Assembly (NCBI GenBank): GCA_051881335.1 | Contig: JBJEPR010000139.1 | Location: 1 to 51,441 of the forward strand | Source of the DNA: Candidatus Fimenecus sp. | Lineage (GTDB): Bacteria > Bacillota > Clostridia > Oscillospirales > Acutalibacteraceae | Reading direction: 5' to 3' | Length of the DNA stretch: 51,441 nucleotides | Shown here: piece after piece, positions 9,544 to 47,435 of the stretch | Numbering within the stretch: the first letter of the stretch is position 1 | Layout of the letters: every line of letters starts with the position of its first letter | Notes under the pieces: model-generated | Told to the model about the DNA's origin: nothing | Databases searched by the model: none | Seen by the model: the letters and a program-made list of their open reading frames with translations, nothing else | Made by a program: the position numbers and the translations under genes

Positions 9544-9712
9544 ACGGATTCACCTCCTAAAAGAATTTTTTCGCTTGCTTTATGAGAATAGAAAGCGCCT
9601 TTTCCGTAAGACAGAAAAGGCGTGTAAAATCAATATTTCACAACTTTTCCTCGGCAGGCGGACTGTAAGTCCTTACGCAAAACGCACCTGCTGTCTTCGG
9701 CAAGCGGATATT
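9544..9712 (-). promoter_or_regulatory. L10-leader-like 5' UTR with an attenuator hairpin
   Basis: About 170-nt leader between an internal promoter and rplJ. It holds a GC-rich structured segment (CCGCUUGCCGAAGACAGCAGGUGCG...CCGCCUGCCGAGG). A CGCCUUUUC-loop-GAAAAGGCG hairpin followed by a U-rich tract comes next. Position and layout match the Firmicute L10 leader; this was not checked against a covariance model. Confidence 0.55.
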
Positions 9713-9741
9713 ATATTAACATTTCAAAGCAGAAATGTCAA
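9713..9741 (-). promoter_or_regulatory. Internal sigma-70-type promoter candidate for rplJL
   Basis: On the minus strand, TTGACA, a 17-nt spacer, then TAATAT. Confidence 0.5.
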
Positions 9742-24708: not shown

Positions 24709-26068
24709 ATTCGTACATCTCCTTCACGGCCTCAAAGAATTCGTCGGGCACATTGTTTTTGGGGTTGTATTCCAGCAACAGATTTTCGCCCGTATATTCC
24801 CCCGCTGTCTCGGTAAAATGCTGTAACAAAACGGGAAGTTTTTTCCCCTCGGCGCGGAATTTTTCCACGGTTTTATGCAGTGCAAACACAATTTCCGACA
24901 CCGTGCCGACGCATTCAAAGGGTTTCACCTCGGAAAAGCCGCACAGCCCGTCAAAATCCGAAAGTAAATCCCCGTCATCAAGCATATTCGCGCCGAAAAG
25001 CGCGCAAAGGCGGTCATACGGAAGAAACGGCGACAAAATCGAAAAGACAAACAGGCATTTTGCACATTTGCCGCACCAAATATTTTGCTTACTGCCGCGG
25101 TTGCAGCTGCGGAAGGTTTCGTGATACTGTGGGTAATCGGCGAACTGCTTGGCAATCTGCAATTCCGAAAACGGGCGCAGTAAACTGAAATAGCGAATGT
25201 CGGGCACCAAATTGCGCTCGGCGTATTTCGAAAAATCACATTCAAACGCATAGGATTTGGAATACTGATGATTGACTTCTGTCCCCGCGATGTTCGACTC
25301 ATTCGCGCTCGACTCGTTCGAGAGCACAATATCCCGTGCGCCGACCAAATACGCGCAGTAGAACGACAAAAACGCCACAATCGCCGAAAACGGCGTGTGC
25401 CCGTTCAAAAAGCCCTCTTGATTTAAGCGTAGTAAATTTTTATCTATCGTGCGGTAGGTGCGGACAATCGCGCTGTCCGTATAGCCTGCCGCGTGTACGG
25501 TATCGGTGCGCGCAGGCTGGTCATTCACGGTGAAAAACAGGTTTTTTTCTTTCTCCCCGCGCAAAAGCTGTGCGGTCACGCAACTATCCTTACCGCCGCC
25601 GACGGGAATGATGTGTATCCCGCTTTGGTTATAATCCCCCAAGGGACGCGCCTCGGCTTCTTTTTCACAGACAATTTCCATAAAATCGTCTTTGTCCGCT
25701 TCAATGTCGTTGATGTAGAAAAATTCCGAAAGTCCGCGGAAATACAGCCGTTTCCAAAAGCGAATATCCCAGTCGGACAAGTACCCGCATTGCACCTTGA
25801 CCGTTTTCGGGCACGCCGCTTTCCAATAACTGATAAGCTCCACCATTCCGAGCGAAAACACCACCGCCTGCGCGTCGGGAGAAGCGGGGTCATTTAAGAT
25901 GTGTAAGTTTTCCGTTTCGATTTCAGTGGACGGCGCAAAGGCACAAAGCCCGTCAATCGAAAAATGAAAGGTCAGCCGAACACGCGTGCCGATTTTTTCA
26001 ATTTCATAGCGTTCATAAGTAAAAGTGGGATATGTTTTTCGCAGTTCTGCAAAGGTTTTTTCCGCCAT
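24689..26068 (-). CDS. PP-loop (adenine nucleotide alpha-hydrolase)-like protein coupled to murD; possible MurL-type epimerase
   Basis: 459 aa from the ATG at 26068 (AGGAGGA RBS). PP-loop-like IIPVGGGKDS and QueC-like CGKCAKC motifs. The stop overlaps the murD start by 20 nt. Confidence 0.75.
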   Translation of the reverse strand: MAEKTFAELRKTYPTFTYERYEIEKIGTRVRLTFHFSIDGLCAFAPSTEIETENLHILNDPASPDAQAVVFSLGMVELISYWKAACPKTVKVQCGYLSDWDIRFWKRLYFRGLSEFFYINDIEADKDDFMEIVCEKEAEARPLGDYNQSGIHIIPVGGGKDSCVTAQLLRGEKEKNLFFTVNDQPARTDTVHAAGYTDSAIVRTYRTIDKNLLRLNQEGFLNGHTPFSAIVAFLSFYCAYLVGARDIVLSNESSANESNIAGTEVNHQYSKSYAFECDFSKYAERNLVPDIRYFSLLRPFSELQIAKQFADYPQYHETFRSCNRGSKQNIWCGKCAKCLFVFSILSPFLPYDRLCALFGANMLDDGDLLSDFDGLCGFSEVKPFECVGTVSEIVFALHKTVEKFRAEGKKLPVLLQHFTETAGEYTGENLLLEYNPKNNVPDEFFEAVKEMYEYVSADC

Positions 26069-26267
26069 AAAATCCTCCTGCGTATGAAAATCAATCAATA
26101 GTATATTATACGATTTACACCGAAAAAAAGCAAGGCGTGGCATAAAAATATACATATAAAGGACAGTGCTCTCCGAATTTGTCGGTTTTTGCACCGTCTT
26201 TTTTCGGAAATTCACAAAAAGTTAATATACATCTGTATAATGGGTAAGGTAAGGAGTGGAACGCCGT

Positions 26268-31391: not shown

Positions 31392-31425
31392 CCCGTTTCC
31401 ATTACAAATTTGTAATGAAAACGGG
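31392..31425 (-). terminator. Terminator hairpin after the TPM-domain gene
   Basis: Near-perfect 17-bp palindrome CCCGTTTCCATTACAAA/TTTGTAATGAAAACGGG with a U-rich tract on the minus strand. Confidence 0.7.
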
Positions 31426-31453: not shown

Positions 31454-32281
31454 TCAAAATCCTCTCGACGAGCCGCCGCCACCGAACGAACCGCCACCGC
31501 CCGAGAAGCCGCCACCGGAAAATCCGCCCGAAGAATGGGACGAACCGCCCGAAAAACCGCCGCCCACAGGTCCGCCGTAAAATGTACCGCCGTGGAAACC
31601 GCCATTGCCGCCCGATCCGCGCCCCGACGAGCCGCCGCCTTTGCGCGACATACTGATGGCTATTAAAATCACAATGACAATCAACGCACCGATTAGACTG
31701 ATGGCGCCGAAAAACTCCGCTTCGTCGTCATCGCTTTCATAATCGTCCTCTGCCATCGGCACATAGTCCGACGGCGTTTGCCCGTATTCTGTGTAGACCT
31801 CGTTAATCAGAATTTTATACGCTTCCAAAAGGCCTTTGGAAAAATCGTTGTCTTTTAAATACGGTATGGCGTAGGTATCCAAAATCCGACCGGTTTTGCC
31901 GTCGGGCAAACAGCCTTCCAAGCCTTTGCCGACCTCAATACGCACCTGTCGGTCGCCTGTGGATAGCAAAAGTAAAACGCCGGAATCCGCCGTTTCTTCC
32001 CCAATACCCCATTCATTTGCCAAATCGTAGCCGTAGTCCTCAATCGCTTCGCCGTCTAAGGACGAAACCGTCACCACAACCACCTGCGCGCCCGTCGCCT
32101 GGTAAAGGGCCTCGCCGAGGCTTTGCATTTCTGCGGCGTCCTCGGCAGAGATACAATTCGCAAAATCATTGACAAAAAACGCGTCGGTCGGCGCGGGCAC
32201 ATTTGCCTTTGCCGCCGCAGTAAACAAGGATACGCACAAAGTAAGGCAGGCGGTAAAAACTGCAAAAAGCCGTTTTTTCAT
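31454..32281 (-). CDS. TPM-domain (YgcG-like) protein with a TM helix and Gly-rich C-terminal tail
   Basis: Signal peptide, TPM phosphatase-like domain (V.D.A..IS......L......L...TGAQVVVVTV.SL), one TM helix, then a GGFSGG-type low-complexity tail. Confidence 0.9.
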   Translation of the reverse strand: MKKRLFAVFTACLTLCVSLFTAAAKANVPAPTDAFFVNDFANCISAEDAAEMQSLGEALYQATGAQVVVVTVSSLDGEAIEDYGYDLANEWGIGEETADSGVLLLLSTGDRQVRIEVGKGLEGCLPDGKTGRILDTYAIPYLKDNDFSKGLLEAYKILINEVYTEYGQTPSDYVPMAEDDYESDDDEAEFFGAISLIGALIVIVILIAISMSRKGGGSSGRGSGGNGGFHGGTFYGGPVGGGFSGGSSHSSGGFSGGGFSGGGGSFGGGGSSRGF

Positions 32282-32305
32282 AAATCCCCCTTCGGCTTAA
32301 GCCGT

Positions 32306-32881
32306 TTATGCGCCGAAATCCACACTCGGCACGGTTTGCGATTCTTCGCTTGCCTCGAAATACTCTACCGCTTCAAAATCAAACATACCCGCAATCACCG
32401 AGGTCGGGAATTTTTTGATTTCGGTATTGTAATCTCTTGCTTCCTCGTTGTATTCCTGCCGTGCTTTCGCAATGCGGTTTTCACTGCCCGCGAGTTCGTC
32501 CTGCAAGTTGATAAACTGCGTGTCCGCCTTTAATTCAGGATAGTTTTCTACCACCACAAGCAAGCGGGAAATGGCAGAATCGAGCGCATCGTTTGCCTCG
32601 TTCATTTCACCGACGGTTTTTGCGCCCGCAAGCGCCGCGCGTGCATCGGCAAGCGCAGTATAAACTTCCTCTTCGTGCGCCGCATAGCCTTTTACGGTGC
32701 TGACGAGATTCGGAATTAAATCCGCACGGCGTTGCAAATAGGTTTCAACCGTAGACTGCGCGGTCAAGACCTCCTCGCGGTCTTCGACAAGTTCGTTATA
32801 CGTGGAAACCACACCGCCTACCAGCGCAATCACGAGCATCAAAACAACGGCTAAAATAATCAAACCGGTTTTCTTTTTCAT
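32306..32881 (-). CDS. lemA: LemA family protein
   Basis: N-terminal TM helix and LemA motifs (YN.LV...E.V....S.V...LQRR.DLIPNLV..VKGYA.HE). Usual pairing with a TPM gene. Confidence 0.93.
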   Translation of the reverse strand: MKKKTGLIILAVVLMLVIALVGGVVSTYNELVEDREEVLTAQSTVETYLQRRADLIPNLVSTVKGYAAHEEEVYTALADARAALAGAKTVGEMNEANDALDSAISRLLVVVENYPELKADTQFINLQDELAGSENRIAKARQEYNEEARDYNTEIKKFPTSVIAGMFDFEAVEYFEASEESQTVPSVDFGA

Positions 32882-32922: not shown

Positions 32923-33939
32923 TTATTCAAATCCGTTGGGATTTTGGCTTTGCCAGCGCCAAGAATCCTCGCACATTTCGGCAAGACCGCGTTTTGCCTC
33001 CCAACCGAGCACCTCTTTCGCTTTGGTGGGGTCGGAATAGCAGGTGGCAATATCGCCCGGGCGGCGCGCTACGATTTTGTACGGCACTTTTTTGCCGCTG
33101 GCTTTTTCAAACGCCTTGACAATATCCAAAACGCTGTACCCGTGGCCCGTGCCGAGGTTGAATACCTGCACGCCTTTGTTGCCTTCCAATATGTTATCGA
33201 GCGCTTTCACATGGCCTTCTGCCAAATCCACCACATGAATATAATCCCGCACACCTGTGCCGTCTGGCGTATCGTAATCGTCGCCGAACACCGAAAGCTC
33301 GGGCAATTTGCCGATGGCAACCTGCGTAATATAGGGCATCAAATTGTTCGGAATGCCGTTCGGATTTTCACCGATTCTGCCACTTTTGTGTGCACCGATG
33401 GGGTTAAAGTAGCGAAGCAGAGTAACATTCCATTCGTTGTCGGACTTGAAAATGTCCTCCAAAATAATTTCAATCATATATTTGGTGGTGCCGTAGGGGT
33501 TGGTGGTGCCGCCGGTTTGCATCGTTTCTTTTAAGGGCGAAACATTGTGCATCCCGTACACGGTAGCCGACGAGCTGAACACAATATTTTTGCAGTGATT
33601 TTGACGCATTACATCGCAAAGCACAAGCGTACCGCCGATGTTGTTATCATAGTATTCAATCGGCTTGCGGCAGGATTCGCCGACCGCCTTGAGCCCCGCA
33701 AAATGAATGGCCGCTTCAATTTTGTTCTCCTTAAAAATTTTGTCCATTCCCGCCTTGTCGCGAATATCGCACTCATAAAATTTGAGTTCCTTGCCGCAAA
33801 GCTCGTTGATGCGCGCAAGCGATTTAGGGCTGGAATTGTAGTAATTATCCACGATAATTACCTCATACCCTGCCTGCGTTAAAGAAACGCAGGTGTGCGA
33901 GCCGATAAACCCGGCACCGCCTGTTACCAAAATTGCCAT
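32923..33939 (-). CDS. galE: UDP-glucose 4-epimerase
   Basis: [13 protein letters not shown]ossmann motif, the YG.TK catalytic motif, and GalE-like sequence throughout. The second ATG (33939) was chosen for RBS spacing. Confidence 0.95.
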
Positions 33940-33988
33940 TTGAATCATTCCTCCCGAAAGAAAATATTGAATATAGATATACTATGAT

Positions 33989-36148
33989 TTATGCAGTTAA
34001 TTGCGCGCCGGCGTAGAATTTAGAAAGAATTTGTGCGTAGCTTGAACCCGTCGCTGCCATTTTGTCCGCACCCGCAAGGCTCATACCGACGCCGTAGCCG
34101 ACGCCGTACACCGTAATGGTAAATTCATTGGTTGGGGTGTTATATGTCACCGAGAAGCACTGCGACGGCAGATTTTTGCCCGCCATCACCTTTTCGATAA
34201 ATTCAATGCCCGAAATCTCCTTGCCGCCGACAGATACCGTTTCCACATAGCCGACGCCGGTATTCACCGCGCCGTCGTGCTTGAGTACTTTTATCCATTC
34301 TGCGGGGTCTTCGGCCAGTTCCAGCGTTGCATCGTAAGCGGTCAGCATCGCTTTCATATCGTCCGCCGAGAAAATCAGTTCGGTTTTGTAGCCTTCCTGC
34401 GTTTTGTCCGTCGCACATTCCACCGCACGCAGATACGGGAAATTTTGCCCGTACACAATGTCGGCAGGCGTTGTTCTGCCGGCAGAAAGCTTGAAATACG
34501 GTGTAAATGCCGTAGTATCGCCGAAGCTCAAATATTCGCCGAACACCGCGCGTACTGCGTTGTAAACCTCATCACTGTATTCGGGGGCAAGCGTTACGCC
34601 CGTGATTTTCCAGTTGGTATTGCGGTATTTCAAATAAGTATAAATTGCAATCGCCTGTGCCTTGAGTGCTTCGGGTTGGGTGTCTGCACTGACTTCTGCC
34701 TCAATCATACGCGCAACAGCCTCTTTGGCATCCATCGTTTTCCCGTTGACAATCATTTCAGAGGGAATGTCGTCCGCAGAAGCGGAAGCGCCTTCCGAGG
34801 TATCAATCGCCGTTCCTGCGGCAGATTGCGTGGTCACTTCGGCGGGAGTTTCCTGCACGCCGGAGCGCATTTCGTTATACATAAACTGTGACATCACCAC
34901 GGTTTCGATTTCCGGCTCGGGCTCGGCAACCGAAACGGGCTGTGTCGTGGCAGGCGCTTCGGTAGATGCGGCGGCACGCTCTGCGTCACGCGCTTTCTTT
35001 TCTTTCACAAAGAAAATACAACCGACGGTAATGGCCGCCACCAACACCAATGCGATAACGGAGAGGGTGATTTTCCCCGATTTTTTGGAAAGGAAGGACG
35101 GCGCTTCGGGCGAAGCGTCCATACCTGTCACTTCAATGCCGACCGCGCCCTTGCCGACCGCCTTTTCACCGATTAACTCCACCAACTCCTCAGCGGCATC
35201 GGCAACAAAGTCGTGTGCACTTTCATCTTCCTCGCGGTACAGCTTGCGCACCACGGCCGTTTTATCGTCGGCAACCGTAATACATATGTAGTCGCCGCCG
35301 TCGCCCGTGCCGATTTCGGAAATTGACGCGCCGAGCTGTGCGCCGGAAAGCTCTTTTGCCGCTTTGGCGGTCAAGGCAACATAATCGGTTAAATTGTAAT
35401 CGCCCTTGTCCTCGACATGGGGTGTGAATACGAAAAAGCTGTCAAAATCCGCAATGCCTTCGCCGAGTTTTTTGATTTCCTCAGCATACGGCGTACCGCT
35501 GACAGCGACTTTTGCGCCTGCTTCCCGCAAAATATTGACGGTATGCTGCATCACATCGGCTTCGGGGAACGAATCCTGCACGGGTATCTCTGCCGGTTCC
35601 GTTTGCGCGGGGACTGCGGGCGTCTCGTCTTTCGCTTCTGCCGGCGCAACGGCACACTGCATCAAATACGGCACCAAGCCCGCTTTTAAAATGCGCTCCA
35701 GCCGTTCCTCGTCCAGCGGCAGAAACACCATCGTCTGCGCGCCCTTCCGGACGGCAAAGCCCGGATACATCCCGTCCTCTGTGAAAAAGCACACTGCATT
35801 TTCGGGCACAGCGGCGTTTTTGACCTTTTCATCGGGGGAAAGCCCCGTGTTTTCCGACAGAAGCGTATAAATCTCTTCGTTCTGTACGGTCGGGAGCGCC
35901 AGTGCCGCGCACAGCTTTGCCCGCACCGAATTGTATTTCGCCTTGTCGATTGCCAAAACGATACATTCTTCGTTTTTCAGAAGCGCCGCAAGCTGCGGGA
36001 GCATAGCTTTGAGCGTCGGAAAACACGCGAAGGCGGTGTCCTCCTCCGAAAACGCACGCAGGGCACCCGAAATGCGTTCAAGCAAGCCCGAAACACTCTC
36101 GCGGTCGGCAGTCAAAGCCAAAAGTTTCATATTCATATCTCTCATCAT
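33989..36148 (-). CDS. Fusion protein: degenerate CinA-like cytoplasmic region, one TM helix, extracytoplasmic SpoIID/LytB domain
   Basis: C-terminal ~270 aa carry SpoIID motifs (MIEAEV....PEALKAQAIAIYTY and SAGRTT.ADIVYGQNFPYLRAVEC). A TM helix lies near residue 370. The N-terminal region aligns by eye to both the CinA N-domain and the PncC domain but lacks the AESCTGG motif. The exact start is uncertain because of several nearby ATGs. Confidence 0.8.
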   Translation of the reverse strand: MMRDMNMKLLALTADRESVSGLLERISGALRAFSEEDTAFACFPTLKAMLPQLAALLKNEECIVLAIDKAKYNSVRAKLCAALALPTVQNEEIYTLLSENTGLSPDEKVKNAAVPENAVCFFTEDGMYPGFAVRKGAQTMVFLPLDEERLERILKAGLVPYLMQCAVAPAEAKDETPAVPAQTEPAEIPVQDSFPEADVMQHTVNILREAGAKVAVSGTPYAEEIKKLGEGIADFDSFFVFTPHVEDKGDYNLTDYVALTAKAAKELSGAQLGASISEIGTGDGGDYICITVADDKTAVVRKLYREEDESAHDFVADAAEELVELIGEKAVGKGAVGIEVTGMDASPEAPSFLSKKSGKITLSVIALVLVAAITVGCIFFVKEKKARDAERAAASTEAPATTQPVSVAEPEPEIETVVMSQFMYNEMRSGVQETPAEVTTQSAAGTAIDTSEGASASADDIPSEMIVNGKTMDAKEAVARMIEAEVSADTQPEALKAQAIAIYTYLKYRNTNWKITGVTLAPEYSDEVYNAVRAVFGEYLSFGDTTAFTPYFKLSAGRTTPADIVYGQNFPYLRAVECATDKTQEGYKTELIFSADDMKAMLTAYDATLELAEDPAEWIKVLKHDGAVNTGVGYVETVSVGGKEISGIEFIEKVMAGKNLPSQCFSVTYNTPTNEFTITVYGVGYGVGMSLAGADKMAATGSSYAQILSKFYAGAQLTA

Positions 36149-36198
36149 CCCTTAAACCGAACATTTCGGTATCAATTTACTTAGGCAAAGCCAACGCT

Positions 36199-37689
36199 TT
36201 AGGCGGGGTCAGTGGGTTCGACAGACGCCGAACCGTTGATTGTCCACTTCTCGGCATTTGCATACGGATTTTCCTGCCCCAGTTTATCATAATACGCCTG
36301 CGGATACCGCGGATTTTCATTCACCTTGGCAAGCGAGGTATCAATCACGGTGCTTTCGTTTTCGCGAAGCATTCTGCCGATGACCACCAAACGCGCGTCG
36401 GAAAACTCATAGGTACAGGTCTGCAGGGTCAGAATTTTATCGGTCGGCTGAATATCCACGCCCGTGGAATAGAGCTTGCGTTCGTCCACTGCGGCAATAT
36501 ATTCCATAAACTTGTCATTTGTGCCGAAATCCGTAACGGTGTAGTTGAAAATATACCCGTTGTCGTCCTCTTCCTTGCTGTTGGTAATCAGCACCGCATA
36601 AATTTTGAATTTATAACTGCGGTACAGCGTATCGAATTCAATCACGGGCGACTCTTGGAAGCCCTCCACTGTTTTGTATTTCTTTAAATCGGCAAAGACC
36701 AGCCCGTCGCTCATATGGTGTCCGTAAATAATGGTGTTTTTATTTAAATATTTCGGGTCGTTGCGGTAATCCATACACGGACAGCCATAGCGGCTGTAAT
36801 TGCCGTAGAAATCCTTTTTGAGATAAGTGGCGTTATCTTCGGCTTGCACAACCTGTACATCAATTAACGAATTGGGAATTTGAATCCAACCGACCAAATC
36901 CTGGTTAATCGCATACAGATACGCATATTTCGCCATCATACCCTCAGGCAGATTGATGTTCGGATATTTCGATAAAAACTCCGACCAAACATCCGAGTCT
37001 GTGGAAGTACCGGTATCGTCGATAATTTGTCCTTTAATCTCTTTGTTCTGCTTGCTCGCCTGATAGCTTTGCACGCCGTACACGCCGAAATACACAAGAC
37101 AGCACGCCAAAGTCACCACCGCCAAATCGGTAATCACCTTGCGAATACCCTCGCCGACGGTATCGTGTTTATTCGGAAAGATTTTTAAGAATGCGCTTTT
37201 AAAAATCTCATTAAAGGTGCGGTATTCCTTTGTGCTTTTAGGCGGCTGGCTGACTGCGGTATTTGATTTTTCGGTGTCGGCCAACGGTGCAGTTTCCGTA
37301 TATCCGGACAAATCAGCGTATTCGTGATAATTGTCGGTTACATCGACAAACTGGTCGCCCTCCGACAGGAATTTGCTCTTTCTGCCGGTCGGAGCTTTCG
37401 TTTCGGGCGTCGTTTCCATCACCGAGCGCAGAACATCATCATAAATGCTGCGGCTTTCCTGCGCGTCGTCGTCCGCCTTCGCTTCTGTCGGGGGTGGCGT
37501 CTCAGCAGGCGGCTTTGCCGCTGAAGCTGTATCAGACGGCGTTTCCTTTGCATCGCGCAAGGAAGAAAGCAGCGCTTCTACCGTATCCACTTCTTGTGTA
37601 TTGTTCTCCTGCGTGCCATCGGAAGCGAGCTTTTTTTTGAGCTCATCAAATGAAAGCACCTCATTTTGTTGTTCATCGTGCTTAGCCAT
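36199..37689 (-). CDS. Class-B-type sortase paralog S3 with a ~190-aa acidic low-complexity N-terminal region
   Basis: TM helix, then DLVGWIQIPNSLIDVQVVQAEDNATYL, TIIYGHH, LTLQTCT and DARLVVIGR. The ATG lies 3 nt after the S2 stop, with a GAGGTG RBS. Confidence 0.85.
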   Translation of the reverse strand: MAKHDEQQNEVLSFDELKKKLASDGTQENNTQEVDTVEALLSSLRDAKETPSDTASAAKPPAETPPPTEAKADDDAQESRSIYDDVLRSVMETTPETKAPTGRKSKFLSEGDQFVDVTDNYHEYADLSGYTETAPLADTEKSNTAVSQPPKSTKEYRTFNEIFKSAFLKIFPNKHDTVGEGIRKVITDLAVVTLACCLVYFGVYGVQSYQASKQNKEIKGQIIDDTGTSTDSDVWSEFLSKYPNINLPEGMMAKYAYLYAINQDLVGWIQIPNSLIDVQVVQAEDNATYLKKDFYGNYSRYGCPCMDYRNDPKYLNKNTIIYGHHMSDGLVFADLKKYKTVEGFQESPVIEFDTLYRSYKFKIYAVLITNSKEEDDNGYIFNYTVTDFGTNDKFMEYIAAVDERKLYSTGVDIQPTDKILTLQTCTYEFSDARLVVIGRMLRENESTVIDTSLAKVNENPRYPQAYYDKLGQENPYANAEKWTINGSASVEPTDPA

Positions 37690-37692
37690 AAG

Positions 37693-38655
37693 TTACTGTT
37701 CACCTCTCGGATACCACTTTGCATCGTTTTTATACGGATTTTTTAGGTTGTACTTATCATAATACAACTGCGGATATTTCGGATTTTCATTCTCCACGGC
37801 ATAGGCGGTATTTTCTTCCGCGCTCTCACCGTCGCGCACCAGCCGCGCCATCACGACCAAGCGCGCATCCTCCTGCTTGTTCTCGCTTAAATCCAAATCG
37901 CGCGTGCAGGTGGAAAGCGTCAGAATTTTGTCACTCGGCAAAATATCCACTCCTGTACGGTAAAGGCTGCGCGTTTGGACTTCGTCGATAAAATCCACAA
38001 AGTTCTCCTCGGTCATAAACGGATATATGTAATTGAACACATAGCCGTTATCCAATTCCGGGGAAGCAGTGGTCAAAAACACCGCAAAGACCTTCCATTG
38101 ATAGTCTTTATAAATCGTATTGAATTCGATAACGGGCGCCGTCTGATAAAATGCGATGTCCTTGTATTTTTCCAAATCCGAGAACATCGTGGAATCCAAA
38201 TAATTGTGCCCGTATAAAATCGTATTGCGATTGAATTCGGAAACGCTGTTGCGGTAATCCATAAAGATACTGCCGCGGCGTAAATATTCCTTGTTTGCAT
38301 CACGGCGCAGATAAAAATCGTTGTCCTCACCTTGGTAAACGGGGAGGTCTATCGCTGTGTTCGGCACGGTAATCCAGCCGACAAAATCATAATTGGCGTT
38401 ATACGCCGCGCGGTATTTCGGCTGCACCTCGGCAGGCTCTGCGGGATAGCTTTCCGTTTCGGATGCCGGCACGGGTTCCGAGGTCATTTCCGGCGGCAAA
38501 GAAGCGTATTTCTCCTTCACATAGTGCACACAGAGCACGACCGCCGACACCAAAAGCAGAACACCGGCAATGACAATGCCGCACACCAGCGCCTTCGACG
38601 GCTTTTTCGGCGATTGCGCACCCGTAGGGGCGGTTATATTCGGCTGTTCCTGCAT
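37693..38655 (-). CDS. Class-B-type sortase paralog S2
   Basis: TM anchor, GWITVPNTAIDLPVYQGEDNDFYL, TILYGHNY, LTLSTCT and DARLVVMAR. The ATG at 38655 was chosen (AAGGAG RBS); the track start at 38721 overlaps S1. Confidence 0.88.
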   Translation of the reverse strand: MQEQPNITAPTGAQSPKKPSKALVCGIVIAGVLLLVSAVVLCVHYVKEKYASLPPEMTSEPVPASETESYPAEPAEVQPKYRAAYNANYDFVGWITVPNTAIDLPVYQGEDNDFYLRRDANKEYLRRGSIFMDYRNSVSEFNRNTILYGHNYLDSTMFSDLEKYKDIAFYQTAPVIEFNTIYKDYQWKVFAVFLTTASPELDNGYVFNYIYPFMTEENFVDFIDEVQTRSLYRTGVDILPSDKILTLSTCTRDLDLSENKQEDARLVVMARLVRDGESAEENTAYAVENENPKYPQLYYDKYNLKNPYKNDAKWYPRGEQ

Positions 38656-38692
38656 AAAAGAAGCTCCTTTTTCCCGTCTGTACGCGTTTGTC

Positions 38693-39682
38693 TCATTCCC
38701 CTTTCGGGTACCATTTTTCATCGTTCAAATACGGATTTTCCAGCTTGTATTTGTCGTAATACAGCTGCGGATATTTCGGATTTTCGTTGACCGTTGCTTT
38801 CGTGACATCGACTGTTTCACTTTCCCCCTCGCGCACAAGCCGCGCCATCACGATACAGCGTGCGTCCTCTTGTTTACGGGAGCTCAAATCCAAATCCCGC
38901 GTGCAGGTTTGCAGGGTCAAAATTTTGTCGGTCGGCAAAACCTCCACATCGGTGTGGTAGAGACTTCGCTTGTTGACCTCGGCAATAAACTCCGCAAAAT
39001 TGTCGTCGGTCATAAACGGATAAATATAATTGAACACATAGCCGTTGTCCAGTTCCGGCGAGGCAGTGGTCAAAAAGACCGCAAACACCTTCCACTTATA
39101 ATTTTGATATATCGTGTTAAATTCGATAACGGGCGCAGTTTTGTAAAATTCAATATCCTTGTATTTTTCCAAATCGGAAAACATCGTGGAATCGAGGTAA
39201 TTGTGCCCGTATATAATCGTGTTTTTGTTAAAGGTATCAATGCTGTTGCGGTAATCCATAAAGATGCTGCCGCGGCGTTCGTATTCCTTGTAAAAATTCC
39301 GGCGCATATAGTAATCGTTGTCAACAGCCTGCACAACCGGCTGGTTAATGGTGGTGTTGGGAATCACAATCCACCCGACCAAATCGTTGTTTTCGTTATA
39401 TGCGGCGCGGTACTGCGGCTGCACCTCGGCAGGCTCAGCAGGATAAGTTTCGGCTTCGGGTACGGTAGTCAGCTCGGCAATATTTTCCGCCTGTTTTTTG
39501 CTGTCGTACACCTCTTTAAAATATTTCACGCATATCCCGCCGGAAACGAGCAATACCAACACCGCAAGCACGGTAATCAGTCGATTGAGAACGCCGCCTT
39601 TTTTGCGCTTTTTCTGCGGCGGCTTTTGCGCAGGGGTATCGGGCACCAAATCCGTCGCCCGTGCGTATTGCTTATTGTCCAT
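38693..39682 (-). CDS. Class-B-type sortase paralog S1
   Basis: TM anchor, GWIVIPNTTINQPVVQAVDNDYYM, TIIYGHNY, LTLQTCT and DARCIVMAR. The start overlaps the pncC stop by 11 nt. Confidence 0.88.
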   Translation of the reverse strand: MDNKQYARATDLVPDTPAQKPPQKKRKKGGVLNRLITVLAVLVLLVSGGICVKYFKEVYDSKKQAENIAELTTVPEAETYPAEPAEVQPQYRAAYNENNDLVGWIVIPNTTINQPVVQAVDNDYYMRRNFYKEYERRGSIFMDYRNSIDTFNKNTIIYGHNYLDSTMFSDLEKYKDIEFYKTAPVIEFNTIYQNYKWKVFAVFLTTASPELDNGYVFNYIYPFMTDDNFAEFIAEVNKRSLYHTDVEVLPTDKILTLQTCTRDLDLSSRKQEDARCIVMARLVREGESETVDVTKATVNENPKYPQLYYDKYKLENPYLNDEKWYPKGE

Positions 39683-40157
39683 CGAATAAGTACCTCCGTA
39701 CAGCCTCTAACGCATGCTGTGCCGATGCAGTGCGGTTTTGCTCCCGCACATTGTCCGTAAATCGGTTTTCGTATTTTTCTACGGTCACGGCGTCTTTATC
39801 TGCCAATGCGATAAAGACAAGCCCCACGGATTTGTTCGTGTCATCGGAATTGGGCCCTGCAATCCCCGTCACGGCGACTGCCAAATCCGCATCGGCGGCT
39901 TTGCGCGCGCCCAACGCCATTTCGCGCGCGGTTTGTTCACTGACCGCACCGTATTTTTGTAAGGTTTCCGCCTGCACGCCGAGCCATTTTTCTTTTAAAC
40001 GGTTGGAATAGGTCACGAGCGACCCGTGGAACACCGCGGACGCCCCCGAAACATCGGTTAAGCGTTTGGCGATCAGCCCGCCTGTGCAGGATTCCGCCGC
40101 CGTGAGCGTCAACCCTTTTTCGGAAAGCAAAGAAATGACTTCTTCTTCGAGTGTCAT
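39672..40157 (-). CDS. pncC: Nicotinamide-nucleotide amidohydrolase (stand-alone CinA C-terminal domain)
   Basis: LTAAESCTGGLIA motif and GIAGP segment in 161 aa. Confidence 0.92.
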   Translation of the reverse strand: MTLEEEVISLLSEKGLTLTAAESCTGGLIAKRLTDVSGASAVFHGSLVTYSNRLKEKWLGVQAETLQKYGAVSEQTAREMALGARKAADADLAVAVTGIAGPNSDDTNKSVGLVFIALADKDAVTVEKYENRFTDNVREQNRTASAQHALEAVRRYLFDGQ

Positions 40158-40170
40158 AGCGTACCTCTTT

Positions 40171-41349
40171 TTAAAATGTGGTTTTAATCAATTCAAACCG
40201 TGCGCCCTCAACCGCGCGTTCCACAAGCGTTTCGACATCGAGCGCGCTTTCGGCGTGCTCCAAAAACGGAATTTGCGGACGCGTTTTCGGGTGCTTCGGG
40301 GTAAATACCGTACAGCAGTCCTCATACGGCTGAATGGAAATGTTAAAAGTATCAATCTGCCGTGCGCGGATAATGATTTCATCTTTGTCCATACCGATAA
40401 GCGGGCGGAACACGGGAAGGTCAACCACCGCGTCGGTACAGCCCAAGGAAAGCATCGTTTGGCTTGCCACCTGCCCGACGCTTTCGCCCGTAATCAGCGC
40501 GGCGCAATCCTCTCTTCTGGCAATGCGTTCGGAAATACGCATCATAAAGCGGCGCATAATCAAGGTGAACAGTTCTTCGGGGCAGTTGTCGCGGATTTGC
40601 GTTTGAATTTCGGTAAACGGCACGGTGTAAAGCCCGATGTCGCCGCTGTATTTCGCCACCTGCCGCAACAGGTCGTGCACTTTCATTTCCGCCTGCGGCG
40701 AAGTGAACGGCGGCGAGGCAAAATGCACCGCGTCAAGCACAATACCGCGCTTCGCCATCATCCAACCTGCCACGGGGCTGTCAATCCCGCCGGAAATGAG
40801 CAACGCCGCCTTGCCGCCTGTGCCCACGGGCATACCGCCCGCACCTTTGATTTGGTTACAGCGGATATACGCTTTTTTCTCACGCACTTCCACCGTGACC
40901 ACGCGGTCGGGGTTATGCACATCGACCTTTAAATGCGGGAACGCCGAAAGCAGCGCTCCGCCGACCTCGCGGCTGATTTCGGGCGAGGTTAAGGGGAATT
41001 CCTTATCCGACCGCTTCGCCTCGACCTTAAAAGTCGAAATTTCCGAAAGCGTATCGGCAAGGTATTCCTTTGCGGCGGGCAAAATCTCCGCCATATCCTT
41101 TTCGACCGCCGCCGCGCGTTGAAAGCCCGCGATACCGAACACCTTGGAAAGGCGTTCGACCGCCTCGTCCATATCAAAATCCGCATCGGTCGGTTCTATT
41201 GTAATCGTAGATTGTGAACGGGATATGACAAACGCGCCCAAACCCTGCATTCTGCGCTTGATATTTTTTACCAATACGCTTTCAAAGGTGGAACGGTTTA
41301 AGCCCTTGAGTGCCAATTCGCCGTTTTTAATTAAAATAATTTCCTGCAT
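40171..41349 (-). CDS. thiI: tRNA 4-thiouridine(8) synthase
   Basis: N-terminal ferredoxin-like/THUMP region and PP-loop LLISGGIDSPVA. Confidence 0.95.
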   Translation of the reverse strand: MQEIILIKNGELALKGLNRSTFESVLVKNIKRRMQGLGAFVISRSQSTITIEPTDADFDMDEAVERLSKVFGIAGFQRAAAVEKDMAEILPAAKEYLADTLSEISTFKVEAKRSDKEFPLTSPEISREVGGALLSAFPHLKVDVHNPDRVVTVEVREKKAYIRCNQIKGAGGMPVGTGGKAALLISGGIDSPVAGWMMAKRGIVLDAVHFASPPFTSPQAEMKVHDLLRQVAKYSGDIGLYTVPFTEIQTQIRDNCPEELFTLIMRRFMMRISERIARREDCAALITGESVGQVASQTMLSLGCTDAVVDLPVFRPLIGMDKDEIIIRARQIDTFNISIQPYEDCCTVFTPKHPKTRPQIPFLEHAESALDVETLVERAVEGARFELIKTTF

Positions 41350-41352
41350 ACT

Positions 41353-42477
41353 TTATCCTTTTTTACGAAGTGTCTGCACTTCGGTTTTCAGCGTTTGTAA
41401 ACAAAAGTCAATTTCTTCCGCCGTCGTTTCGCGCGAAAGGCTGATGCGCACGGCAGTGTCAATTTCCGCTGAAGAAAGCCCCATAGCCGTCAGCACAGGA
41501 CTGCGGTGTCCTTTGGCGCAAGCCGAGCCCGCCGAAACATACACGCCCTGTGATGAAAGAAAATTCACACTCACCTGCGAGGGAATCTCCTCAACGGAAA
41601 TGTTTACAATATAGGGGAGCGCATTTTCGGGGGAGTTTATGCGAATGCCGTCAATCTGTCGCAAACCGCTTACCAGTCGGTCACGAAGTGCCGAAACGCG
41701 TTCCCCGTTTTTGCGAATGTCGCCGACCGCCGCTGTTGCCGCGCCGAACGCCGCAATCGCGGGCATCGCCTGTGTACCCGAGACAAGCCCGTTTTCCTGT
41801 CCGCCGCCGAACAGATACGGTTTCAAATGCAATCCCTGCCGCACATACAGCGCGCCTGCGCCCTTTAAACCGTGAATTTTGTGTGCGCTGACGGACATCA
41901 AATCAATTCCGCATTTTTTCGGCGCAATCGGCAATTTCAGGAAGCCCTGCACCGCGTCCACATGCAAAAGCGCTTTGCTCTTTTTGCGCCGCAGAATGCC
42001 CGCAATTTTATCAAACGGTAAAACACTGCCGACCTCGTTATTCACGGCCATCAGGCTTACCAAAACGGTTTGTTCGTCCACCGCATTTTCGAACTGCTCT
42101 GCGGAGAGATTGCCGTCGGCGTCAGGCAAAAGGCGTACGACCGTAAAGCCCTGTTCCTCCAATCGGCGCATACAGTTTTCCACGCTCGGGTGCTCAAATG
42201 CCGTGGTGACGATTGTGCCGCCATGCCGTCCTGCCGCGCCGAAAATCGCGGTGTTGTTTGCCGCCGTGCCGCTCGGCGTAAAATAAATTTCCGCACGGTC
42301 CGCCGAAAGGGCTTTGGCAACTTCACCGCGTGCCGTTTCAAGCATTTGCAGTGCCGTAAGCCCGCATTCGTGCAAAGACGAGGGATTGCCGAAGGCTTCG
42401 GTCATCGCCGTATTTGCGGCGTCCACCGCCGCTTGACACGGCTTTGTGGTCGCGCTGTTGTCTAAATAACAATGCAA
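41353..42477 (-). CDS. Cysteine desulfurase (class V aminotransferase, NifS/IscS-like)
   Basis: YLDNSATT N-terminus, SAHKIHG.KG PLP-lysine motif and SAGSAC active-site Cys loop. A TTG at 42477 (AAGAGGG RBS) is preferred over the track TTG at 42516; the start is uncertain. Confidence 0.9.
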   Translation of the reverse strand: MHCYLDNSATTKPCQAAVDAANTAMTEAFGNPSSLHECGLTALQMLETARGEVAKALSADRAEIYFTPSGTAANNTAIFGAAGRHGGTIVTTAFEHPSVENCMRRLEEQGFTVVRLLPDADGNLSAEQFENAVDEQTVLVSLMAVNNEVGSVLPFDKIAGILRRKKSKALLHVDAVQGFLKLPIAPKKCGIDLMSVSAHKIHGLKGAGALYVRQGLHLKPYLFGGGQENGLVSGTQAMPAIAAFGAATAAVGDIRKNGERVSALRDRLVSGLRQIDGIRINSPENALPYIVNISVEEIPSQVSVNFLSSQGVYVSAGSACAKGHRSPVLTAMGLSSAEIDTAVRISLSRETTAEEIDFCLQTLKTEVQTLRKKG

Positions 42478-42637
42478 AGCAAACCCTCTTTTCAAAAAAC
42501 TTTCAAAATACAACAATATCGCAGTTTCTTATTATACACGATAATCCTTGCTTTGGCAAATAAAACAGCATATTTTTTCAAAGAAATTTCTGTATATTTT
42601 CATATTTTCTGCAAATTCTACCTGAGAGGTGAACAAT

Positions 42638-44428: not shown

Positions 44429-45187
44429 TTATAAAATTAAGTTTTCGGCGATCTGCCGTTTGTAATTTAAAAATGCAGGGGTCAGCGAAAAATCGTGCGG
44501 TCGCGGACGCGGCGCATCAATCGGAATTTCACATAAGATATGCCCCGGCTTACCGCCCAAAATGCAAATACGGTCGGACAGCTTCACTGCTTCGTCCGTA
44601 TCGTGCGTGATAAACAGCGTGGACAGCTCAATTTCATTCATAATATCCAAATACCAATCGTGCATCGCGCTTTTGGTAATGGTATCCAGCGCGCTGAACG
44701 GCTCGTCCAACAGTGCCACGCCGTCGCTTGCAAGATAGGTGCGCAACAGCGCCGCGCGCTGACGCATTCCGCCCGACAGCTTATTCGGATATTTTTTTTG
44801 TGTGCCGTCAATGCCGAATTTTTGAAAATAGGACGACGCTTTTTCGCGCGCCTGTTTTTTGGGCATACCCTTGATAATCAGCGGCAACGCGACATTATCG
44901 ACCACCGTGCGGTACGGCAACAGCAAATCCTTTTGGAGCATATAGCTGATTTCGCCGGGATGCCCCGTAATCTCGCGGTCACCGAGATATACCTTACCGC
45001 TGTCGGGCTGCATCAATCCCGAAAGAATGTTGAATAGCGTGGTCTTACCGCCGCCGCTCACGCCGAGCAAGCAAACCAGCTCGCCTTTTTTCAGCGTGAA
45101 ATTCACATTTTCGAGTACGCGGTTGTCCCCGAAGCTTTTGGAAATGCCCTCGGCACGCAATACGATTTCGTTAGGAGAGATAGGCAT
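44429..45187 (-). CDS. ABC transporter ATP-binding protein (NitT/TauT family; ThiZ-like)
   Basis: Walker A GVSGGGKTT, signature LSGGMRQR, Walker B LLDEP. Last gene of the TPP-riboswitch operon. Confidence 0.9.
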   Translation of the reverse strand: MPISPNEIVLRAEGISKSFGDNRVLENVNFTLKKGELVCLLGVSGGGKTTLFNILSGLMQPDSGKVYLGDREITGHPGEISYMLQKDLLLPYRTVVDNVALPLIIKGMPKKQAREKASSYFQKFGIDGTQKKYPNKLSGGMRQRAALLRTYLASDGVALLDEPFSALDTITKSAMHDWYLDIMNEIELSTLFITHDTDEAVKLSDRICILGGKPGHILCEIPIDAPRPRPHDFSLTPAFLNYKRQIAENLIL

Positions 45188-46187
45188 TGGTATACCCCGT
45201 TCCGGCGGGCAATTCTTTTTCAATTAAACCGTTTTCCCAAAGCCAAGCATAAAATCCGTCCCAACGCGCGGGGTCAATATAGCCCCACTGGTCGACCTCG
45301 GCTTTATACTGCTGAGAAAGCCATTTTTGGCTTTCGGTAACCAGCTCTAAAGAATCCTTGAGCGAACCGGTAGTGTCGCCGTCCACCAAAATCTGCGCCG
45401 CTTCTTCGGGATTTGCAATCGCATATTCATAGCCCTTTTTGAGCGCGGCAAGGAATGCCTTGGTCGTTTCGGGATTTTGCTCGATATAGTCGTTATTCGC
45501 AATCAAAATCGGGGTGTAATAATCAAACACGGGGTCAATATCGGCAAAGTTGAAATAATCAAACTCCAAACCCGAAAGCTTTGCGGAAATACCGCCCCAG
45601 CCGTAGTAAATCCAAATCGCGTCGGTCTGCTTTTCTCTGAGCGCGCCCGCTTCGTCGGTAATATTATTCGGAATCAAGTTGACTTTGGAGAAGTCGCCGC
45701 CGTCCTTTTCCACAACGGATTGCAGCATAGCCTTTTCCACCGGAATATCCCAAGTGGAATAAGTATGGTTTTCTAAGCCCTTCGGGCTGTCCATCCCCTC
45801 GCCCTTGCGGGAGATGATACCCGAGGTGTTGTGCTGTACGAGCGCGGCAACTGCCGTTACGCCCAAAGGCTCGTCCGAAGTAAACGCCGAAGCGATGGTA
45901 TCCTGTGCGTCAATCGCAAACTGTGCCTGCCCTGCCGCGCACATCGCGGCGGCACCGCTTTCGGGCGGCTGTACTACAGTCACATCCAAGCCCGCTTCGG
46001 TGAAATAGCCTTTTGCGAGTGCAACATAAATGCCCGTATGGTTGGTATTCGGCGTCCAATCTAACGAAAGGGTGATTTTTTGTAAATCTGCTGTCTGGTC
46101 GGTCTGTTTTCCTGCACAAGCGGCAAGTGACAAAAGCATCACCGCGCACAACAGTACGGCAAGAATTTGTTTTGTATATTTTTTCAT
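45171..46187 (-). CDS. Lipoprotein substrate-binding protein, NMT1/THI5-like (ThiY-like, HMP/pyrimidine precursor binding)
   Basis: Lipobox LAAC. LDWTPNTNHTGIYVA motif typical of NMT1/THI5-like binding proteins. ATGA overlap with the permease stop. Confidence 0.88.
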   Translation of the reverse strand: MKKYTKQILAVLLCAVMLLSLAACAGKQTDQTADLQKITLSLDWTPNTNHTGIYVALAKGYFTEAGLDVTVVQPPESGAAAMCAAGQAQFAIDAQDTIASAFTSDEPLGVTAVAALVQHNTSGIISRKGEGMDSPKGLENHTYSTWDIPVEKAMLQSVVEKDGGDFSKVNLIPNNITDEAGALREKQTDAIWIYYGWGGISAKLSGLEFDYFNFADIDPVFDYYTPILIANNDYIEQNPETTKAFLAALKKGYEYAIANPEEAAQILVDGDTTGSLKDSLELVTESQKWLSQQYKAEVDQWGYIDPARWDGFYAWLWENGLIEKELPAGTGYTNAYLS

Positions 46188-46963
46188 TGATTTTCTCCTT
46201 TTTCTTTTCGTTCCCACGGCATAACGAGTTTGCGAAGCACCGCAACGCCCCACATCAGCAAAAGACTTACAAGTGTTGTAAAAATAATGACGGCGAACAT
46301 TTTGTCAAAGGCATATGCCTTTCGCACACGCGTCATATACACACCCAAGCCCTCAAAGCCGCCGAGCCATTCGGCAACCACCGCGCCGACTACGGCGTAC
46401 GAGGCGGATACTTTCAGCCCTGCAAAAAACGAGCCCAATGCCGAGGGGAATTTAATGTAACGGAAAATTTTTACGCGTCCCGCGCCCATACTGCGCAACA
46501 GATTGATGGCATCTTGGTCTGCACAGCGGTAGCCGTCCAACAAACTGACGGCAATCGGGAAAAAGGTGGTCAACACCACCAGCGTAATTTTCGGCGCCAT
46601 ACCGAAGCCCTGCCAAAGCACCAACAGCGGTGCGACGGCAATGGTCGGCACGGTTTGTGTAATCACCAAAAGCGGATAAATCGCCTTGTAGAGGATTTCA
46701 AAGCGGTCCATCAGCGTGGCAAGTAAGAATGCCAGCACCACGCCGAGTAAAAGCCCCAAAAACGCCTCGGTCAGCGTAACACGCGCGTGCTGACACAACA
46801 GCGAAAAATCCGAAAAAAATGCCTTTGCTACCGCCGCGGGGGACGGTAACATAAACGACGGCACCAAATCGAAGCCCGTTGCCGCCGCCCAAATCGCCAC
46901 CACCGCCAAAAGCGCCACAGCGGGAGAGAGCTTACTGATGATGCTTTGTAACTTTTTGGTCAA
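46184..46963 (-). CDS. ABC transporter permease (NitT/TauT family; ThiX-like)
   Basis: Six-TM BPD-type permease with an EAA-like loop (LLRSMGAGR...F..I.FP.A). Confidence 0.9.
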   Translation of the reverse strand: MTKKLQSIISKLSPAVALLAVVAIWAAATGFDLVPSFMLPSPAAVAKAFFSDFSLLCQHARVTLTEAFLGLLLGVVLAFLLATLMDRFEILYKAIYPLLVITQTVPTIAVAPLLVLWQGFGMAPKITLVVLTTFFPIAVSLLDGYRCADQDAINLLRSMGAGRVKIFRYIKFPSALGSFFAGLKVSASYAVVGAVVAEWLGGFEGLGVYMTRVRKAYAFDKMFAVIIFTTLVSLLLMWGVAVLRKLVMPWERKEKGENQ

Positions 46964-47291: not shown

Positions 47292-47304
47292 TTGTGGTTT
47301 TTGT

Positions 47305-47400
47305 GCAACAAACTACCTACGGCGGCATTACCCGCATCAGGTGAAAGGGTCAAAGAAGCGTTCATTCTTTATCTCAGCCGGCTTTTGCGCCAGCCCCCCT
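47305..47400 (-). ncRNA. TPP (THI-box) riboswitch
   Basis: The minus strand reads GGGGCUGGCGCAAAAGCCGGCUGAGAUAAAGAAUGAACGCUUCUUUGACCCUUUCACCUGAUGCGGGUAAUGCCGCCGUAGG. It contains the conserved CUGAGA, ACCUGAU and GGUAAUGCC..CGUAGG elements. Confidence 0.9.
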
Positions 47401-47435
47401 GTGGTTGGATTCAGTTTTCATAAGACTTCCAAAAA

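Follow-up and report, generated by a model that had tools for sequence, protein, structure and literature searches.

What might hold three sortases, a stand-alone CinA C-terminal domain and a membrane protein ending in a SpoIID/LytB domain together on a clostridial chromosome? The question is raised by contig JBJEPR010000139.1 of Candidatus Fimenecus sp. (GenBank assembly GCA_051881335.1), of which we analysed a stretch of 51,441 nucleotides, referred to here as the window. An earlier note, made from the letters of this DNA, had singled out five co-directional minus-strand genes in the order pncC, sortases S1, S2 and S3, and a 719-amino-acid (aa) membrane protein, and had proposed that they form a dedicated envelope or spore-cortex remodelling module. 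Having compared the cluster with related loci, we lean towards reading it as a vegetative wall-anchoring and peptidoglycan-remodelling module of Clostridia, with a mechanism that we infer from sequence and predicted structure. Its core comprises cinA or pncC, one to three class-B-type sortases bearing a characteristic C-terminal tail, and a membrane protein with a CinA-like and usually a SpoIID/LytB domain.

A check of the open reading frames (ORFs) put all five genes on the minus strand where the earlier note had placed them, and the tight packing described there was likewise found: pncC and S1 overlap by 11 nucleotides (nt), the ATG of S3 lies 3 nt past the S2 stop, and 50 nt separate S3 from the gene for the 719-aa protein. 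Two starts called for correction. That of S2 is ambiguous: with ATG 38721 the gene would share 29 nt with S1, and with Met23 the two would stand 37 nt apart. The database gene call for the 719-aa protein (P0001) begins 4 codons later to give 715 aa. The genes of the cluster, with the parts of their products that matter to the argument, are as follows (NMN, nicotinamide mononucleotide; AF2, AlphaFold2).

39672..40157, minus strand: pncC, stand-alone CinA C-terminal (NMN amidohydrolase-type) domain, 161 aa (PF02464, TIGR00199)
38693..39682, minus strand: S1, short class-B-type sortase, 329 aa (TIGR03064)
38696..38842, minus strand: C-terminal tail of S1, aa 281-329, RLVREGES..VDV..A.VNENPKYPQLYYDKY.LENPY.NDEKWYP
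37693..38721, minus strand: S2, short sortase, tandem copy, 342 aa (TIGR03064)
37696-37845, minus strand: C-terminal tail of S2
36199..37689, minus strand: S3, long class-B-type sortase, 496 aa (TIGR03064)
36202-36375, minus strand: C-terminal tail of S3
33989..36148, minus strand: 719-aa protein, CinA-like domain, transmembrane helix and SpoIID/LytB domain
35114..36148, minus strand: CinA-like domain, predicted pseudoenzyme, aa 1-345, cytoplasmic (AF2, Foldseek, hhalign)
34967..35083, minus strand: single transmembrane helix, aa 356-394 in the AF2 model
33992..34765, minus strand: extracytoplasmic SpoIID/LytB domain, aa 462-719, Glu485 kept (TIGR02669)

The tail-bearing sortases and their genomic partners

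The class-B type that had been proposed for the sortases was borne out by TIGR03064, the NCBIfam hidden Markov model for this class, to which S1, S2 and S3 scored 192, 177 and 160 bits against a cut-off of 153.75. All three carry the catalytic motifs that had been quoted for them, with the His in TI[IL]YGH (His160 in S1, His172 in S2, His324 in S3), the Cys in LTL[QS]TCT (Cys260, Cys272 and Cys425, respectively) and the Arg in DARx[IV]V (Arg275, Arg287 and Arg433), behind one hydrophobic anchor apiece of 18-22 aa (aa 35-52 in S1 and aa 189-206 in S3). The closest solved relative of S1 is SrtB from Bacillus anthracis (1rz2, E-value 5e-45), followed by SrtB from Staphylococcus aureus, with the Clostridioides difficile enzyme more distant. 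An AF2 model of S1 built from an alignment of the three window sortases had a predicted local distance difference test (pLDDT) score of 41.5, too low for use.

Past the catalytic Arg, all cluster sortases, both short and long, share in our cross-lineage alignment a tail of about 50 aa with the consensus R[LM]VR.GE..VDTS.A..N.NP[RK]YPQ.[WY]YD..G..NPY...E.W.P. The solved SrtB proteins end before this tail, and in S1 it falls outside the Pfam Sortase match (aa 105-283). Judged from the alignment, the tail is a signature of the cluster's sortase subfamily. The association of this subfamily with its neighbours was examined in reverse by scanning metagenome contigs with the sortase alignment as seed, which returned 80 loci that we annotated with our own profiles. 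A CinA-like and/or SpoIID gene was present in 38 of the 43 tail-bearing loci with at least 1.5 kb of downstream sequence, and cinA or pncC in 28 of the 33 with at least 1.5 kb upstream; among the tail-less SrtB metagenome loci, a cinA/pncC, CinA-like or SpoIID gene was found in 0 of 28. The tail-bearing loci make up about 30 groups at 70% sortase identity, and by our reading of the table a partner gene occurs in 21 of the 26 informative groups. The number of sortases varies, with a single one in L054-L057 and three in L079.

Gene order was compared in a close-relative set of 22 GTDB species loci and 3 metagenome loci (L001-L025). Every sufficiently long locus in the set has the order ypeB (divergent)-nifS-thiI-pncC-short sortase-long sortase-719-aa homologue-galE-LemA-TPM, and the 719-aa homologues are 44-90% identical to that of the window. 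More distant members, in which the N-terminal domain of this protein is 20-29% identical, have the core order nifS-thiI-full-length cinA-sortase-sortase-family member, the three-domain cinA gene standing in place of pncC. Here the upstream neighbours are genes for an ATP-binding cassette (ABC) binding protein or a chromate transporter rather than ypeB, and the downstream ones a cadherin-like protein gene or lexA. Conservation in relatives, by which the earlier note had meant its proposal to be judged, is thus seen in all complete loci of the close set and extends to distant lineages with other flanks, the order from nifS to the CinA-like protein recurring in about 20-30 lineages of Clostridia. 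The carriers are Clostridia, from gut and rumen lineages of the Oscillospiraceae/Acutalibacteraceae type. We considered ypeB, galE, LemA and TPM as further members of the module and rejected them, as other genes take their place in other lineages. In two of the distant loci (L029:5120-7117 and L030:5135-7156) a charged, Lys/Glu/Ala-rich, coiled-coil-like protein of 665-673 aa with no Pfam match is encoded between the two sortases, and the long sortase of these loci has a charged cytoplasmic extension similar to it.

The partners are also found joined and split in several ways. One ORF (L075) encodes a transmembrane helix, Sortase and SpoIID in a single chain, and another (L087) runs through MoCF_biosynth, CinA_KH, CinA, a transmembrane helix, Sortase and SpoIID, with each Pfam domain scoring above its cut-off. 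Conversely, L045 and L049 encode the CinA-like part and the SpoIID part in two neighbouring genes, and in six loci (L079, L084, L085, L089, L091 and L098) the N-terminal domain finds no match in the SpoIID-type protein; the one of these that we read, from L085, begins with a hydrophobic signal or anchor segment. Taken together, the changing flanks, the fusions and the fissions suggest that the parts work together and are not mere inherited neighbours. Two observations on individual loci may be added. The stand-alone SpoIID-type protein of L045 (L045:12789-14096) has a marginal Dockerin_1 match at aa 37-86 (23.0 bits against 22.9), which hints that in one lineage the wall-acting domain may be held on a cohesin scaffold. 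In L062 and L072 the sortase and CinA-like/SpoIID genes lie in several ORF fragments, which could be pseudogenes or sequencing frameshifts.

The presence of three sortases, which had seemed the notable state, did not prove to be so. S2 and S1 are 66-72% identical, S3 is 44-51% identical to both, and it is S3 that corresponds to the conserved second sortase in relatives. Within the close set, three sortases occur only in the closest relatives (L001-L003, L005 and L022); L017, which is as close as these, has two, as do all the more distant loci of the set. Because of this distribution we take S2 to be a recent duplicate of S1, and the short and the long sortase to be the two ancestral paralogues; the duplication itself would have no special meaning. 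The cytoplasmic extension that makes S3 long spans about 188 aa and is rich in charged, Pro, Thr, Ala and Ser residues, a statement of composition and not a prediction of disorder. Just before its transmembrane segment S3 has the motif F..IFP.K.DT followed by [IV]RK (aa 159-188, window 37126-37215), which is also present in the long sortases of L026, L075 and L087 and is lacking in S1 and S2.

The membrane-tethered CinA-like protein

The 719-aa protein was modelled with AF2 from 20 homologues (pLDDT 79). In the model aa 1-345 form two folded lobes, after which come a long helix (aa 356-394), a linker modelled with low confidence and a folded C-terminal domain. The first lobe (aa 1-165) is MoCF-like and the second (aa 195-335) PncC-like, with a low-confidence linker at the position of the CinA KH domain. 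In a Foldseek search of the PDB, the N-terminal part matched full-length CinA from Thermus thermophilus (4ct8, E-value 2e-11), while the single lobes matched the N-domains of CinA proteins (3kbq, 6mr3) and PncC-type structures (5vu3, 5kvk, 2a9s). By hhalign, the family to which this N-domain belongs also aligned with the full-length CinA proteins that its clusters encode, from one end of CinA to the other, at 99.7% probability and an E-value of 1e-25. The label of CinA-like/SpoIID fusion given in the earlier note is correct on both counts, even though a Pfam scan of the N-terminal domain returned no CinA or MoCF match. Family members have a gap or linker in place of the KH domain, and the columns of GGLGPT.DD, of the ESCTGG Ser and of the YSN..K Lys are not conserved. 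Because the KH domain and the catalytic motifs of CinA have been lost, aa 1-345 is most likely not an enzyme, and its sequence is most readily explained as that of a membrane-tethered CinA paralogue, most likely a pseudoenzyme. The pncC product encoded at the head of the cluster is a regular member of its family (PF02464 190 bits, E-value 3e-56; TIGR00199 158 bits against a cut-off of 68.9) in which the ESCTGG active-site motif, at aa 22, is intact.

How widespread such tethered domains are was addressed by searching 1.84 billion representative proteins with the N-terminal 350 aa. The family comprises only 201 clusters (about 200 at 50% identity) and has no Pfam model. In most full-length members the domain is followed directly by a membrane helix, at about aa 335-370. 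Short forms span 320-500 aa, and long forms, which carry a SpoIID-type domain, span 700-860 aa; many members have no SpoIID domain at all. A search with full-length distant fusions gave only 18 hits, mostly relatives of one sequence, perhaps because Thr-rich linkers dominated the word index. In most of the distant long forms (L026:8001-10352; P0170, P0171, P0185, P0196 and P0256) the SpoIID-type domain shows a circular permutation, with GYGHGVGMSQ.GA...YY lying ahead of E..EALKAQ, whereas in canonical SpoIID and the window protein the former segment is the C-terminal one.

The C-terminal domain itself passes the SpoIID/LytB model TIGR02669 (95 bits against 83.3) and PF08486 (29 against 23), and falls well short of the SpoIID equivalog model TIGR02870, with 109 bits against a cut-off of 234.75. 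Its model matches C. difficile SpoIID (5i1t) by Foldseek with an E-value of 5e-19 and a TM-score of 0.77, B. anthracis SpoIID being matched as well, and the family profile finds 5i1t with an E-value of 2e-32. Glu485, in 'EAEV', aligns with the Glu of the 'GEM' motif of C. difficile SpoIID, and a Glu is kept at this position in 19 of 20 homologues and in all 15 of the distant members aligned. The catalytic Glu of the lytic transglycosylase is said to have been placed by Morlot and colleagues in 2010 at E88 in B. subtilis SpoIID. With the Glu of the catalytic position retained, a glycan-cleaving or peptidoglycan-binding role is predicted for the domain. The extracellular linker between the membrane and this domain (aa 417-452, window 34790-34900) contains a conserved helix, SQFMYNEM.NGVQETPAE, and an AIDTS motif in the alignment of 20 homologues. 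The 719-aa protein was also considered as a substrate of the sortases beside it, and was rejected as it has no C-terminal sorting signal.

Expression, substrates and rival explanations

The cluster lies within a longer run of minus-strand genes, whose remaining members and candidate transcription signals are listed below.

42531..42559, minus strand: sigma-70-like promoter match, TTGCCA-17-TATAAT, 11/12, 15 nt upstream of nifS (consensus match)
41353..42516, minus strand: cysteine desulfurase of NifS/IscS type (PF00266, E-value 2e-70), first gene of the co-directional run
40171..41349, minus strand: thiI, tRNA 4-thiouridine sulfurtransferase (TIGR00342, 370 bits against a cut-off of 264.5)
32923..33948, minus strand: galE, 40 nt downstream of the 719-aa gene (TIGR01179, 456 bits)
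31454..32881, minus strand: LemA and TPM-domain gene pair, after galE, last genes before the terminator, a lineage-specific flank
31392..31425, minus strand: intrinsic-terminator-like hairpin, 15-bp stem and T run, 29 nt past the TPM gene, the best on the minus strand (consensus match)

The flanks named in the earlier note, galE downstream and thiI with a cysteine desulfurase upstream, were all matched by Pfam or NCBIfam models. The start of thiI lies 3 nt past nifS and its end 13 nt before pncC, and nifS precedes thiI in nearly all related loci; galE is a lineage-specific flank, found beside the cluster only in Fimenecus-like lineages and a few other groups. The TPM protein has a long Gly/Ser-rich C-terminal tail, and the LemA/TPM pair stays beside the cluster throughout the Fimenecus-like loci L001-L025, the set in which it was sought. 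The site upstream of nifS is the best sigma-70-like match in 16 kb, and intergenic distances in the run from nifS to TPM range from -29 to +50 nt. Because a sigma-70-like site precedes nifS, a terminator follows TPM and the gaps are short, the arrangement suggests one long vegetative unit of ten genes, probably with one sigma-70-type promoter and one terminator. RNA elements and tRNAs were sought within the cluster and none was found.

A six-frame scan of the whole window revealed no ORF with a C-terminal sorting motif, hydrophobic stretch and basic tail, in agreement with the earlier note, which had reasoned that the substrates must lie elsewhere or be unconventional. Other genomes are more informative here. 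Directly downstream of the cluster in L026 and L043/L062 are genes for cadherin-like proteins with a signal peptide, whose C-termini have IPDTG or IPGTG followed by a hydrophobic stretch and a basic tail, and in L040 an IPKTG protein follows a lone tail-bearing sortase. Tail-less SrtB loci have neighbours with VPTTG, NPDTG and GPETG motifs. Ordinary substrates flanking the same sortases in other genomes had been named beforehand as evidence against a dedicated module, and they do occur, in the few loci just listed. Housekeeping sortases usually lie apart from their substrate genes, as do S. aureus SrtA and C. difficile SrtB. In the related organism Ruminococcus bromii, the scaffoldins Sca2 and Sca5, which bear sortase signals, are encoded at other sites in the genome (PMC5814915, PMC4611034, PMC12663171). 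Given the substrates in relatives and these scaffoldins, the want of a nearby substrate is what one would expect of a general sortase; the absence noted earlier stands, but not its standing as an anomaly. That the cluster sortases prefer IPxTG/LPxTG signals is a guess, because adjacent substrates occur in only 3 or 4 lineage groups.

In the wall-anchoring and remodelling module that we favour, the tail-bearing sortases would be general, housekeeping-type anchoring transpeptidases acting on IPxTG/LPxTG-like signals encoded elsewhere. The SpoIID-type domain, held at the membrane beside the sortases or on the same chain, may bind or cut glycan strands at the anchoring site, which could either give access to the wall or process the strands that bear anchored proteins. 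On the cytoplasmic side, the pseudo-CinA domain might sense a ligand or act as a scaffold, and may form a pair with the soluble CinA or PncC from the same cluster. Several points weigh against this account. The pair nifS-thiI accompanies the cluster in most loci, for which we see no functional rationale, and since every carrier appears to come from a single broad group of Clostridia, inheritance rather than selection could account for part of the synteny. Each of the two fusions comes from a single metagenome contig, and the ORF of L075 is truncated on the 5' side. The promoter and the terminator are predicted by consensus only, and the small number of lineage groups with adjacent substrates, given above, counts on the same side.

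Pressed to its limit, the argument from inheritance would leave no functional link whatsoever, the cluster being a string of unrelated housekeeping genes that has stayed unbroken within one bacterial order. The synteny of the whole ten-gene block across Fimenecus-like loci, with nifS, thiI, galE, LemA and TPM included, and the similar clostridial type of all carriers are what this would predict. We nevertheless hold it to be decidedly unlikely: the flanks change on both sides whilst the core stays, single ORFs join sortase with SpoIID and CinA with sortase and SpoIID, some lineages fuse the CinA-like and SpoIID parts that others encode separately, and the tail-less SrtB genes are without such neighbours in all 28 loci. 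The same observations of conserved order, changing flanks and two fusion ORFs strengthen the envelope half of the earlier proposal. Its spore-cortex half fared less well. A sporulation module, in which the sortases and the SpoIID-type protein would act in engulfment or the cortex by anchoring to or remodelling the forespore wall, would parallel the sporulation sortases of Bacillus and the SpoIID/SpoIIP engulfment hydrolases. In its favour, solved SpoIID proteins are what the outer domain most resembles, the window has the germination gene ypeB in divergent orientation upstream of the cluster, and the carriers, many of whose loci contain ypeB, look like spore formers. However, ypeB is beside the cluster only in Fimenecus-like lineages, with ABC binding protein, chromate transporter or other genes elsewhere, and the outer domain passes only the generic SpoIID/LytB model, its 109 bits comparing with the 235 set for the SpoIID equivalog. 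Many family members dispense with the SpoIID domain altogether. The genes also sit 3-13 nt behind the housekeeping pair nifS-thiI and a sigma-70-like promoter, although sporulation-sigma promoters were outside the scan and internal ones are possible. We consider a sporulation role to be unlikely on this evidence.

A further reading departs from sorting signals entirely. Together with the SpoIID domain, the sortases might act on peptidoglycan itself or on an unconventional substrate, for example by cleavage or exchange of stem peptides or by processing their own partner, with the pseudo-CinA domain as a gate on the cytoplasmic side. The unique and conserved tail would fit such a role, as would the near-constant company of a peptidoglycan-acting domain that is sometimes fused to the sortase, the want of a nearby substrate in most clusters, and the fusion of cytoplasmic CinA-type domains across the membrane. 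Against this, the sortases pass the class-B equivalog model and keep His, Cys and Arg, classic IPxTG anchor proteins adjoin the cluster in some lineages, and distance from substrates is usual for housekeeping sortases; we regard the idea as doubtful, if worth keeping in mind. Equally tentative is a broader proposal that takes in this one, namely that the cluster encodes either a trans-envelope machine, made up of the sortases, the SpoIID-type domain and the tethered pseudo-CinA and under a cytoplasmic nucleotide signal, or tail-bearing sortases that act on peptidoglycan or a partner. The signal of such a machine might for instance be an NAD-derived (nicotinamide adenine dinucleotide-derived) metabolite handled by CinA/PncC, or a wall-precursor nucleotide, and it would set the place and time of protein anchoring or wall cutting. 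If true, the trans-envelope or the non-canonical reading would amount to a new coupling of cytoplasmic state to Gram-positive wall assembly.

Known systems and the rest of the window

The cluster is built from known families, those of class B sortases, SpoIID/LytB domains and CinA/PncC. Class B sortases act on NP(Q/K)(T/S)(N/G/S)-type signals that are typically encoded nearby, as in isd-type loci. With the SrtB enzymes of S. aureus, B. anthracis, Listeria monocytogenes and C. difficile the window sortases share the profile model, the N-terminal anchor and the His-Cys-Arg residues. They differ in lying outside any isd or haem-uptake locus with no adjacent NPQTN-type substrate, in the tail of about 50 aa, which is without counterpart in the solved enzymes, and in the pairing of a short sortase with a long one whose cytoplasmic extension reaches about 190 aa or more. 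Their fixed neighbours are instead cinA and the SpoIID-type protein. No signal of the NP(Q/K)(T/S)(N/G/S) type is present in the window, and the adjacent substrates in relatives end in IPxTG (IPDTG, IPGTG or IPKTG). The sporulation sortases B. anthracis SrtC (with BasH/BasI) and B. subtilis YhcS (with YhcR) are of class D, with adjacent substrates and control by sporulation sigma factors. They are likewise sortases of spore formers and the window enzymes could, like them, act on developmental walls, but these are of class B, with a vegetative-looking promoter and no adjacent substrate.

Similar comparisons can be made for the 719-aa protein. Set beside SpoIID, the engulfment lytic transglycosylase of Bacillus and Clostridioides, and LytB, the modifier of the LytC amidase, its outer domain has the SpoIID fold and keeps the Glu of the catalytic position, but it remains under the equivalog cut-off, and the family profile has nothing to match about 30 residues that separate the two aligned segments of C. 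difficile SpoIID. It also differs in being preceded by a long linker and some 350 aa of cytoplasmic domain, in being circularly permuted in most distant members, and in being encoded beside sortases with no spoIIP or spoIIM neighbour seen. CinA combines ADP-ribose pyrophosphatase and NMN deamidase (T. thermophilus, 4ct8), and whilst the window PncC is an ordinary stand-alone member of the family, the N-terminal 345 aa of the 719-aa protein share the two CinA lobes without the KH domain and catalytic motifs, in a copy that is anchored in the membrane and fused to a wall-acting domain. A looser analogy may be drawn with VirB1, FlgJ and EtgA, peptidoglycan lytic enzymes of mostly Gram-negative secretion and flagellar machines that have other folds, in that a machine working within the wall has its own wall-cutting domain, whether alongside or fused to it. 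We know of no sortase-linked example of a dedicated peptidoglycan lytic enzyme.

The earlier note had known of no described operon of this kind, and our search of the literature (sortases with SpoIID, CinA or lytic transglycosylases, and class B sortases in Clostridia) found no description of the cluster either. In the literature searched, the tail-bearing sortase subfamily, the tethered pseudo-CinA family, their association with SpoIID and the natural fusions are all undescribed. Sortase-anchored proteins, such as amylosome and cellulosome scaffoldins and adhesins, are central to fibre binding and degradation by abundant gut Clostridia, and to our knowledge the sortases of these bacteria have so far gone unstudied. 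A distinct sortase subfamily with fixed partners gives rise to the testable idea that anchoring is physically coupled to local peptidoglycan processing, for which the natural fusion proteins are ready-made constructs for biochemistry. The membrane-tethered pseudo-CinA constitutes an unannotated protein family, and CinA, whose cellular role is still unclear, gains a new genomic partner.

Outside the cluster the window is an ordinary stretch of chromosome that carries carAB, a Mur-ligase-like gene, genes for ABC transporters and one for a class II tRNA synthetase. Two long ORFs have no Pfam match, one of 591 aa at 3547-5322 (minus strand) and one of 508 aa at 24689-26215 (minus strand), the latter sharing 20 nt with the start of the Mur-ligase-like gene (23413-24708). 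The minus strand also has a ribosomal protein L10 leader at 9580-9718 (65.5 bits against 44) and a thiamine pyrophosphate (TPP) riboswitch at 47296-47410 (59 bits against 54.3), the latter ahead of an operon (44429-46963) for an ABC transporter whose binding protein is NMT1/THI5-like.

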